A stretch of DNA of 6,064 bases from a virus (lineage: Duplodnaviria; Heunggongvirae; Uroviricota; Caudoviricetes): IMG/VR virus record IMGVR_UViG_2700989162_000007. The stretch is one strand, 5' to 3'. The notes below the pieces were generated by a model, which was given only the letters and a program-made list of their open reading frames with translations, did not search any database and was not told the DNA's origin. Every line of letters begins with the position of its first letter. Position 1 is the stretch's first letter. Below are positions 2,276-2,586 of this stretch, one piece after another. The position numbers were made by a program, and so were the translations under genes.

Positions 2276-2350
2276 TGGAGCGGGCAGCGGGAATCGAACC
2301 CGCATCATCAGCTTGGAAGGCTGAGGTAATAGCCATTATACGATGCCCGC
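2276..2350 (-). tRNA. tRNA-Gly (anticodon UCC)
   Basis: Reverse complement GCGGGCATCGTATAATGGCTATTACCTCAGCCTTCCAAGCTGATGATGCGGGTTCGATTCCCGCTGCCCGCTCCA folds as a 75-nt cloverleaf: 7-bp acceptor stem, anticodon stem TCAGC/GCTGA, loop CTTCCAA, T-loop TTCGATT, encoded CCA. It resembles the host glyT-type tRNA from memory. Confidence 0.8.
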
Positions 2351-2353
2351 ATA

Positions 2354-2429
2354 TGGTGCCGACTACCGGAATCGAACTGGTGACCTACTGATTACAAGTC
2401 AGTTGCTCTGCCTGCTGAGCTAAGTCGGC
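2354..2429 (-). tRNA. tRNA-Thr (anticodon UGU)
   Basis: Reverse complement GCCGACTTAGCTCAGCAGGCAGAGCAACTGACTTGTAATCAGTAGGTCACCAGTTCGATTCCGGTAGTCGGCACCA, 76 nt. Acceptor GCCGACT/AGTCGGC, D-stem GCTC/GAGC, anticodon stem ACTGA/TCAGT, loop CTTGTAA, encoded CCA. One mismatch in the T-stem. Confidence 0.75.
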
Positions 2430-2431
2430 GC

Positions 2432-2508
2432 TGGCCCACCACCGAGGACTCGAACCTCGCACCGTCAACTTAGAAGGTTGATGCTCTATCCGGATGAGCT
2501 AGTGGTGG
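2432..2508 (-). tRNA. tRNA-Arg (anticodon UCU)
   Basis: Reverse complement CCACCACTAGCTCATCCGGATAGAGCATCAACCTTCTAAGTTGACGGTGCGAGGTTCGAGTCCTCGGTGGTGGGCCA, 77 nt. Acceptor CCACCAC/GTGGTGG, anticodon stem TCAAC/GTTGA, loop CTTCTAA, T-arm CGAGG-TTCGAGT-CCTCG, encoded CCA. The 5' nucleotide is C, which is unusual. Confidence 0.72.
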
Positions 2509-2509
2509 T

Positions 2510-2586
2510 TGGTGGCCCTTGCTGGACTTGAACCAGCGACCTGGCGATTATGAGTCGCTCGCTCTGACCAACTGAGCTAAAGGGCC
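2510..2586 (-). tRNA. tRNA with CAU anticodon, most likely tRNA-Ile2 (lysidine-modified, reads AUA); elongator tRNA-Met not excluded
   Basis: Reverse complement GGCCCTTTAGCTCAGTTGGTCAGAGCGAGCGACTCATAATCGCCAGGTCGCTGGTTCAAGTCCAGCAAGGGCCACCA, 77 nt. Anticodon loop CTCATAA. It has C4-G69, C5-G68 and C29-G41 pairs, which I recall as TilS identity elements, and resembles E. coli ileX from memory. Confidence 0.75.

Follow-up and report, generated by a model that had tools for sequence, protein, structure and literature searches.

A four-tRNA island in the late region of a lambdoid Escherichia coli/Shigella prophage that probably adds copies of low-abundance host tRNAs

The 6,064-nt stretch of viral DNA analysed here (the window; IMG/VR virus record IMGVR_UViG_2700989162_000007, Caudoviricetes) carries a tight cluster of four tRNA genes specific for Ile2, Arg, Thr and Gly. 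It is near certain that these genes encode functional tRNAs in the late region of a prophage, and we consider it likely that they form a co-transcribed island of a lambdoid E. coli/Shigella prophage that adds low-abundance tRNAs and so eases a translation bottleneck. The island would provide additional gene copies for scarce host tRNAs whose codons the phage uses 2- to 9-fold more than host genes do, with the bottleneck being relieved during lytic growth and possibly also for other acquired genes in the lysogen. The four genes and the candidate promoter that precedes them are the following:

2510..2586, minus strand: tRNA-Ile2 type, anticodon CAU, ileZ homologue, first gene of the cluster (ARAGORN, Rfam, Prokaryotic Genome Annotation Pipeline [PGAP], identities)
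2432..2508, minus strand: tRNA-Arg, anticodon UCU, argN-family body with C1-G72 (ARAGORN, Rfam, identities)
2354..2429, minus strand: tRNA-Thr, anticodon UGU, near-copy of host thrU (ARAGORN, Rfam, identities)
2276..2350, minus strand: tRNA-Gly, anticodon UCC, exact copy of host glyT (ARAGORN, Rfam, identities)
2596..2625, minus strand: candidate sigma-70 promoter of the tRNA cluster (motif and positional conservation)

In the window, ARAGORN identified four tRNA genes and no more. All of them lie on the minus strand and are thus transcribed in the order Ile2, Arg, Thr, Gly. All four belong to the Rfam tRNA family RF00005, with scores of 70.5 (Ile2), 56.4 (Arg), 69.8 (Thr) and 64.9 (Gly) bits against a gathering score of 29. 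The genes are separated by gaps of 1, 2 and 3 nt, and the CCA 3' end is encoded in 4/4 of them. An earlier annotation made by a model from the sequence alone (the first-pass annotation) had given the coordinates, anticodons and 1-3 nt spacing correctly without naming a strand; it had staked the cluster on tRNA predictors recognizing these cloverleaves, and both ARAGORN and Rfam call all of them. Its placement of the cluster between Q/tR' and the lysis genes is likewise borne out by Pfam, PGAP and the fold of the terminator (described below), such that the cluster occupies the location typical of lambdoid late-region tRNA islands, between Q/pR'/tR' and the late genes and in the same orientation.

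Alignment to host tRNAs and to the ileZ, argN and argO genes of Shiga toxin (Stx) phages, which had been proposed as a check, resolved the cluster into genes of two origins. For the gene with the CAU anticodon, identity amounts to 74/77 with Stx-phage ileZ, to 71/77 and 69/77 with E. coli K-12 ileY and ileX, respectively, and to only 54/77 with elongator metT/metU. Its acceptor stem (including C4-G69 and C5-G68) and its anticodon loop (CUCAUAA) are the same as those of ileY, so that the CAU anticodon sits on an ileX/ileY-type body, and PGAP names the identical gene tRNA-Ile. These identities class it as an Ile2-type tRNA. The label Met(cat) that ARAGORN assigns follows the CAU anticodon, and we rejected an elongator Met on the basis of the 54/77 identity to metT versus 71/77 to ileY. 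An A27.C43 mismatch lies atop the anticodon stem; it is common to Stx ileZ, in contrast with G27.U43 in ileX and ileY.

The Arg gene is 64/77 identical to Stx argN, whose anticodon is UCG, and 58/77 identical to host argU. The identity set of E. coli arginyl-tRNA synthetase comprises A20, C35, U36 or G36, and A73 or G73, and the Arg gene carries A20, C35, U36 and G73. The C1 that the first-pass annotation had remarked upon as atypical is present, and it is paired to G72. This C1-G72 pair, atypical for Arg, is invariant across 21 distinct variants of the Arg family, whose cloverleaf has 98.2% of cells paired and 5 pairs with compensatory changes. Because of this invariance, pairing and compensation, C1-G72 is a constrained trait of the family rather than decay, and we rejected the possibility that the gene is a degenerate pseudogene. 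The window's Arg sequence was found in identical form at least 21 times in the IMG/VR sample.

The two remaining genes derive from the host. The Thr gene is 74/76 identical to K-12 thrU; the only two substitutions, both U to C, fall in the D-loop (positions 16 and 20). It has the anticodon arm of thrU unchanged, as do 93/96 phage Thr copies surveyed. The Gly gene, which the first-pass annotation had called glyT-like, has an even closer relationship to glyT than this term conveys, since it is 75/75 identical to the K-12 gene. Among surveyed phage Gly copies, 78/95 are identical to glyT, and the variants have compensatory changes in the acceptor stem. The argO gene fits none of the four well, with a best match of 57/77 to Thr. 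The host has single copies of thrU, glyT and argU. On these comparisons, the island is a mosaic in which Ile2 and Arg belong to the ileZ/argN lineage of Stx phages and Thr and Gly were copied from host thrU and glyT. Taken together, the covariation and pairing of the Arg family and the conserved Gly and Thr copies with their compensatory stem changes indicate that the four genes are structurally sound and under purifying selection for function.

By the modification and wobble rules known for E. coli, the tRNA-Ile2 would carry lysidine-CAU and read AUA, the tRNA-Arg UCU with mnm5U would read AGA and weakly AGG, the tRNA-Thr UGU with cmo5U would read ACA and also ACG/ACU, and the tRNA-Gly UCC with mnm5U would read GGA/GGG. 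The earlier statement that the cluster decodes only A-ending codons is correct as regards A-ending codons, but "only" is too strict, since tRNAs with U34 also read G-ending codons and the Thr tRNA also reads U-ending codons.

Codon usage was compared between the annotated coding sequences of a near-identical prophage in E. coli CFSAN029787, amounting to 12.9k codons, and those of 43 flanking host genes, amounting to 14.3k. In the host genes, each of AUA, AGA, ACA and GGA is used less than any other member of its codon family (AGA being tied with AGG), in agreement with the first-pass annotation's view that they are rare in enterobacterial hosts. The five most enriched of 61 codons in the prophage relative to the host were AGA (odds ratio 9.3), AGG (5.9), AUA (3.0), ACA (2.3) and GGA (2.05), precisely the set that the four tRNAs decode, with wobble accounting for AGG. 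Among the 14 codons that end in A, the top four by enrichment are AUA, AGA, ACA and GGA, both in late and in early prophage genes, with the early/accessory genes being richer still than the late genes in the cluster's cognate codons. Mere A+T richness was rejected as the source of the enrichment in the late genes, since their G+C content of 54% exceeds the 52% of the host genes and they show depletion of CUA, UUA, CAA and GUA. The window's own eight open reading frames (ORFs) exhibit the same codon bias. The lysozyme gene (536-1069) has 7 AUA in 177 codons, or ~40 per thousand versus 2.4 per thousand in the flanking host genes, which would make it a sensitive reporter for the Ile2 tRNA encoded upstream of it. 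That codon demand matches tRNA supply, and that the same slot is filled with tRNAs in Stx phages and in phage 21, supports the functional reading of the island.

Expression of the island could draw on two sources. A promoter-like pair lies directly upstream of the Ile2 gene, with a -35 element TTGCAG (2624-2619), a 17-nt spacer and a -10 element TATTAT (2601-2596) that ends 9 nt before the 5' end of the mature tRNA; the motif scan reported it in the register TTTGCA-18-TATTAT. When upstream regions were anchored at the 5' end of the Ile2 gene, the arrangement TTG[CA][AT]N-17-TAT[TC]AT-9 nt-tRNA was found in 106/120 regions and in 28/36 distinct sequences among the matches listed. The geometry is kept in families whose spacer and upstream sequence have diverged, including the region upstream of Stx-phage ileZ. 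We thus regard a dedicated promoter as a candidate with good comparative support, which is not a demonstration. Active in the lysogen, this sigma-70 promoter would be the first source of transcription, and Q-antiterminated read-through from pR' after induction would be the second. Transcription starting ~7 nt past the -10 element would produce a leader of 2-3 nt, to be removed by RNase P. Since the 1-3 nt spacers leave no space for internal promoters, the four genes probably form one co-transcribed precursor. RNase P would be expected to cut at every 5' end, with exonucleases trimming to the encoded CCA ends; RNase P separation and 3' trimming are known for tightly packed E. coli tRNA operons.

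Several points weigh against the proposal that the island eases a translation bottleneck. Phage lambda, which has no tRNA genes, exhibits odds ratios of 12.7 for AGA, 6.5 for AGG, 3.7 for AUA, 2.0 for ACA and 1.8 for GGA, and when the prophage was compared with lambda directly the odds ratios were 0.73-1.16, i.e. there was no difference. Since lambda is equally biased without tRNAs, the bias belongs to the lambdoid gene pool, and phages manage without tRNA genes of their own; this control led us to reject an enrichment specific to tRNA-bearing phages. Lambdoid phages with and without tRNA genes have also been found equal in codon adaptation (PMC4631060). The supply provided by the island therefore matches a demand common to lambdoid phages, and the codon-usage test proposed in the first-pass annotation, in which the expected enrichment is present, is non-discriminating because the tRNA-less lambda has equal enrichment. 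In addition, the codon counts were taken from the near-identical prophage rather than from the window itself and from only 43 host genes. The promoter motif, which the first-pass annotation had placed at 2596-2624, occurs at chance level when judged by itself (2 sites found versus 1.6 expected), such that the case for it is carried by the conservation of its hexamers and spacing across relatives. A constitutive promoter is also awkward in the absence of a clear terminator before the holin gene. Finally, expression, processing and aminoacylation of the four tRNAs and their effect on fitness are putative.

The codon-compensation hypothesis has been stated before, and two or three tRNA genes have been recorded in lambdoid and Stx phages (PMC4631060, PMC7946995). 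Among known systems, the ileZ-argN-argO island of Stx phages (933W, VT2-Sakai, Stx2a_F349 and others) comes closest. As stated in the first-pass annotation, this island occupies the same slot, 3' of Q, the late promoter and the terminator and 5' of the late genes. It shares with the window its orientation, its tight packing and the -35/-10 geometry upstream, and the first two genes are homologous (ileZ 74/77; argN body with C1-G72 64/77). The two islands differ in the slot-2 anticodon, which is UCU in the window versus UCG in argN, and in the genes that follow: the window has copies of thrU and glyT instead of argO as a third gene, and a phage-21-type lysis cassette rather than stx lies downstream.

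Phage 21 (OL657228) resembles the window in its annotated order of Q, pR', start site, terminator, tRNAs and S21 holin; the holins belong to the same family, and both phages carry a Thr(UGU) gene. The phage 21 Thr is nevertheless unrelated in sequence and has an altered and shorter anticodon stem, whereas the window Thr has the host thrU arm; the Asn gene of phage 21 is absent from the window cluster, and Ile2, Arg and Gly are absent from phage 21. Both anticodons of the phage 21 tRNA pair (39591-39746) are among the targets of the PARIS nuclease AriB, and Thr(UGU) is the main target of P2-OLD, two tRNA-cleaving systems considered below.

In the host, thrU and glyT are part of the thrU-tyrU-glyT-thrT operon, which precedes tufB. 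The window's Gly matches the host gene at 75/75 positions, while Thr is 74/76 identical in the window and 76/76 identical in sister clusters. The phage joins Thr and Gly by 3 nt, without tyrU, the 116-nt spacer or thrT, and its promoter is different. The sister clusters have the order Ile2-Lys(UUU)-Thr-Gly and occur in E. coli prophages and in vB_EcoM-606R7, vB_EcoS-689R5 and PhiR47_1. Their architecture and spacers are the same as in the window, with ~94.5% identity over 311 nt, and most of these loci share the downstream leader and holin with the window. In contrast, their slot 2 has UUU with C33 and U73, whereas that of the window has UCU with U33 and G73, and the Lys type is far commoner. 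The pRARE/Rosetta and CodonPlus helper plasmids, which supply extra low-abundance E. coli tRNAs for foreign genes with rare codons, follow the same logic and have some genes in common with these phage clusters and their host counterparts (ileX, argU, glyT, thrU), but they are artificial and additionally carry leuW, proL and argW.

We considered whether the island could instead serve lysogenic conversion, with its own promoter raising the supply of rare tRNAs in the lysogen to the benefit of acquired genes with rare codons, such as virulence factors and other prophages. The candidate promoter that immediately precedes the cluster, which is conserved in position and would not depend on Q, and the single copies of thrU, glyT and argU in the host are compatible with this explanation, as are the presence of up to three clusters per genome (S. 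flexneri SFBU1023, E. coli ECMA0423) and the excess of cognate codons in early/accessory over late prophage genes. However, the cluster lies in the late operon and is co-oriented with it, as expected of a function in the lytic phase, and roles in lytic growth and in benefit to the host are not mutually exclusive. We rate lysogenic conversion as an unlikely replacement for the bottleneck reading.

Another explanation is that the island is a counter-defence cassette, in which extra or resistant phage tRNAs replace host tRNAs cut by the immune nucleases of competing elements. P2-OLD, the effector of P2-lambda interference, kills via cleavage of host tRNA-ThrU(UGU), and phage Thr(UGU) genes, including that of the lambdoid phage 21, rescue from it; however, a tRNA was resistant only when its CNG motif was altered and its stem was also shorter, and host tRNA-ThrU gave little or no protection (PMC12445682). 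The window's Thr anticodon arm is the same as the host thrU arm, as it is in all but three of the surveyed phage copies, and the protective Thr of phage 21 is an unrelated sequence. Rare Thr alleles that change the CNG motif and shorten the stem do exist (e.g. G42U/U43C in E. coli RMDEC332). For the PARIS system, the main targets of AriB are Lys(UUU), Thr(UGU) and Asn(GUU) (PMC12409363). Phage 21 carries Asn(GUU)-Thr(UGU) in exactly the same slot, and the sister clusters carry Lys(UUU)-Thr(UGU), with the Lys anticodon stem lacking the AriB site U36AAUC|A41. By comparison, Arg(UCU), Ile2 and Gly(UCC) are not named as main targets of P2-OLD or AriB, with Arg being among the additional substrates of P2-OLD (PMC12445682, PMC12409363). 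The window's Gly is glyT itself, and its Arg and Ile2 anticodon loops are those of argU and ileY. Of two features expected of anti-defence tRNAs, an anticodon shared with a nuclease-targeted host tRNA is thus found for the Thr(UGU) gene only, and substitutions in the anticodon arm near a cleavage site are found in none of the Thr, Gly, Arg and Ile2 genes when these are compared to the host. Because its Thr anticodon arm is identical to the host's, a counter-defence role is not supported for the window's allele, and we consider it unlikely that the island is a counter-defence cassette.

A broader version of this idea concerns the slot rather than the allele. Since relatives carry one C1-G72 body with several anticodons, Lys(UUU) without the AriB site and Thr(UGU) alongside, the late-region tRNA slot could be an exchangeable cassette that owes its make-up to an arms race against tRNA-cleaving defences and not to codon usage, a reading that we hold to be improbable. 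If it were true, the window's Arg(UCU) and host-like Thr would be one state of the cassette, and they could act by dosage buffering or be an answer to an undescribed nuclease directed against tRNA-Arg(UCU), Ile2 or Gly(UCC).

We hold it to be very unlikely that the genes are neutral passengers, acquired by illegitimate recombination (Thr and Gly from thrU-tyrU-glyT-thrT) and carried along in the mosaic lambdoid pool without being selected for any function. In favour of this view, Thr and Gly are identical or nearly so to host genes and thus add no new decoding capacity, lambda lacks tRNAs altogether, decayed copies exist (e.g. a "Val(UAC)" gene with a broken acceptor stem in RMDEC332), and the island lies beside varied Q, leader and holin modules; loss of tyrU by deletion would also fit the 3-nt junction TAT between Thr and Gly, although this last is weak evidence. 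Against it, the genes exhibit high conservation and compensatory stem changes over many independent prophages, several phage lineages fill the same slot with tRNAs, the anticodons are those for the five codons with the strongest enrichment, and the promoter geometry is conserved.

Anticodon switching in the slot homologous to 2432-2508 was compared across loci L003, L004 and L009 and IMG/VR loci L012-L131. The same C1-G72 body is found with the anticodons UCG (Stx argN), UCU (window), UUU (the commonest) and UGU (E. coli CE0026a). Saks, Sampson and Abelson (Science, 1998) reportedly showed that this same exchange of UCU for UGU in a tRNA-Arg is able to convert it to Thr. In the UUU form, C33 replaces the near-universal U33, position 73 is U73 and the T stem contains an A.C mismatch; its anticodon stem reads U36AAGUU versus the AriB site U36AAUC|A41. 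In RMDEC332 (3079-3229; also in locus L117), slot 4 is occupied by the "Val(UAC)" gene, which is probably a pseudogene; its body is that of glyT, but the anticodon loop is altered and the loss of 1 nt disrupts the acceptor stem. The G42U/U43C changes in the Thr gene of the same locus alter the CNG motif and shorten the anticodon stem, the two features reported for P2-OLD resistance (PMC12445682). Anticodon switching and Lys(UUU)-Thr(UGU) pairs that match the targets of PARIS and P2-OLD could be of interest to the field of tRNA-targeting phage defence.

The island is widespread. Nine complete E. coli genomes contain the 311-nt cluster at 100% identity, with PGAP annotation, and the four-gene cluster family, defined as a four-gene cluster with at least 80% of the query covered, is present and PGAP-annotated in 603/5,426 complete E. 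coli genomes, or ~1/9. Scanning IMG/VR with the body of the slot-2 tRNA returned, among 120 matches listed, Ile2-Arg(UCU)-Thr-Gly in 26, Ile2-Lys(UUU)-Thr-Gly in 48 and the Stx-type Ile2-Arg(UCG)-Arg(UCU) in 24. Three such clusters are present in each of two species-representative genomes, SFBU1023 for S. flexneri and ECMA0423 for E. coli, and the Thr-Gly pair is found alone in Citrobacter braakii and Enterobacter hormaechei. The named phage records (vB_EcoM-606R7, vB_EcoS-689R5 and PhiR47_1) have the Lys type only. The island adjoins differing Q, leader and holin modules, and we rejected the idea that the tRNA island, the leader and the P21-type holin form a fixed module, since the leader accompanied 5/25 and the holin 11/25 Arg-type loci, which is a loose linkage.

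A literature search of limited reach found no paper describing an Ile-Arg-Thr-Gly prophage cluster. The first-pass annotation had regarded the four-member set as a variant, expanded repertoire; the set does differ from ileZ-argN-argO, but it is neither rare nor unrecorded, being present in 603/5,426 complete genomes and in 26 of the 120 IMG/VR matches listed. The island is an ordinary, already annotated relative of the tRNA islands of Stx phages. It carries little weight as a discovery, as islands at the lambdoid/Stx position have been known for decades and the exact cluster is in RefSeq annotation and abundant in IMG/VR. Its value is as an example in three respects: of a temperate phage carrying precisely the low-abundance host tRNAs for the codons it over-uses, of islands as mosaics of an old phage lineage (ileZ/argN) and fresh host copies (thrU, glyT), and of the inability of codon enrichment alone to establish function when the tRNA-less lambda is equally biased.

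The neighbourhood of the cluster contains the following features:

2786..3166, minus strand: late antiterminator Q gene (Pfam PF06530, E = 4e-54; PGAP)
2673..2699, minus strand: tR'-like intrinsic terminator 3' of Q (sequence reading and folding)
1984..2275, minus strand: structured 292-nt untranslated stretch from tRNA-Gly to the holin gene (minimum free energy [MFE] folding)
1768..1983, minus strand: class II (phage-21-type) holin, first lysis gene 3' of the cluster (Pfam PF04971, E = 5.5e-35; PGAP)

All flanking genes are on the minus strand. Upstream of the tRNAs, Pfam identified a DnaC-like loader (5096-6043), a DnaB helicase (3708-5099), NinH (3159-3362) and the Q antiterminator, the last of which PGAP names "antiterminator Q family protein" in the near-identical prophage. 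Downstream of the tRNAs are the P21-type holin, named "class II holin family protein" by PGAP in the same prophage, a 209-aa ORF, the lysozyme (PF00959, 536-1069) and Rz (PF03245).

The terminator between Q and the tRNAs consists of a 9-bp stem, AAACCCGCC/GGCGGGUUU, followed by a U run. A consensus terminator scan missed this hairpin, which was read from the sequence and folded directly; it is present in both the MFE and centroid folds, and the 84-nt segment that contains it folds at -28.8 kcal/mol (z = -3.1). Equivalent hairpins lie upstream of the cluster in relatives. This tR'-like hairpin is the counterpart of tR' in lambdoid late operons. The short interval that separates the terminator from the stop codon of Q (2700-2786, minus strand) contains the block TCTGTTAAGAGTGGTYGCTTCGCCACACARCTTAAACCCGC, which is also conserved in L003, a relative whose Q module differs. 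This conserved block is compatible with a putative pR' that would give rise to a short terminated transcript of ~55-60 nt.

The 292-nt stretch between tRNA-Gly and the holin gene has an MFE of -89.1 kcal/mol (z = -4.07), with 0/200 shuffles folding as well, and it forms three long hairpins. The stretch is conserved in relatives L002-L004. A permissive Rfam search of 1950-2850 returned the four tRNAs and sub-threshold noise, with no small RNA or leader family for either this stretch or the pR'-tR' transcript. Neither the consensus scan nor the fold of 1984-2275 revealed a canonical terminator between the tRNAs and the holin gene.

The 209-aa ORF (1135-1764, minus strand), located between the holin and lysozyme genes, belongs to phrog_1085. 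It had no match in Pfam or PADLOC, and PADLOC found nothing convincing for the neighbouring ORFs of no assigned function. Related prophages have a YdfR-family gene in its place. Near the lysozyme/Rz junction, the window contains a run of 110 N (422-531); in the closest genome, S. flexneri SFBU1023, the matches on either side of it are only ~40 nt apart, so its length is not the real one.

Positions 532-6064 of the window are 99.98% identical to the chromosome of Shigella flexneri SFBU1023. From ~600 onward, the window is near-identical to a ~46-kb prophage of E. coli CFSAN029787, with 17 mismatches over 600-6064. This prophage is inserted between btsS and mlrA (yehV) at ~362.3-408.4 kb of NZ_CP011416.1. 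An ipaH effector gene with a frameshift lies near the tail-fibre end of this prophage, and its late region includes a RelE/ParE-ParD toxin-antitoxin pair.

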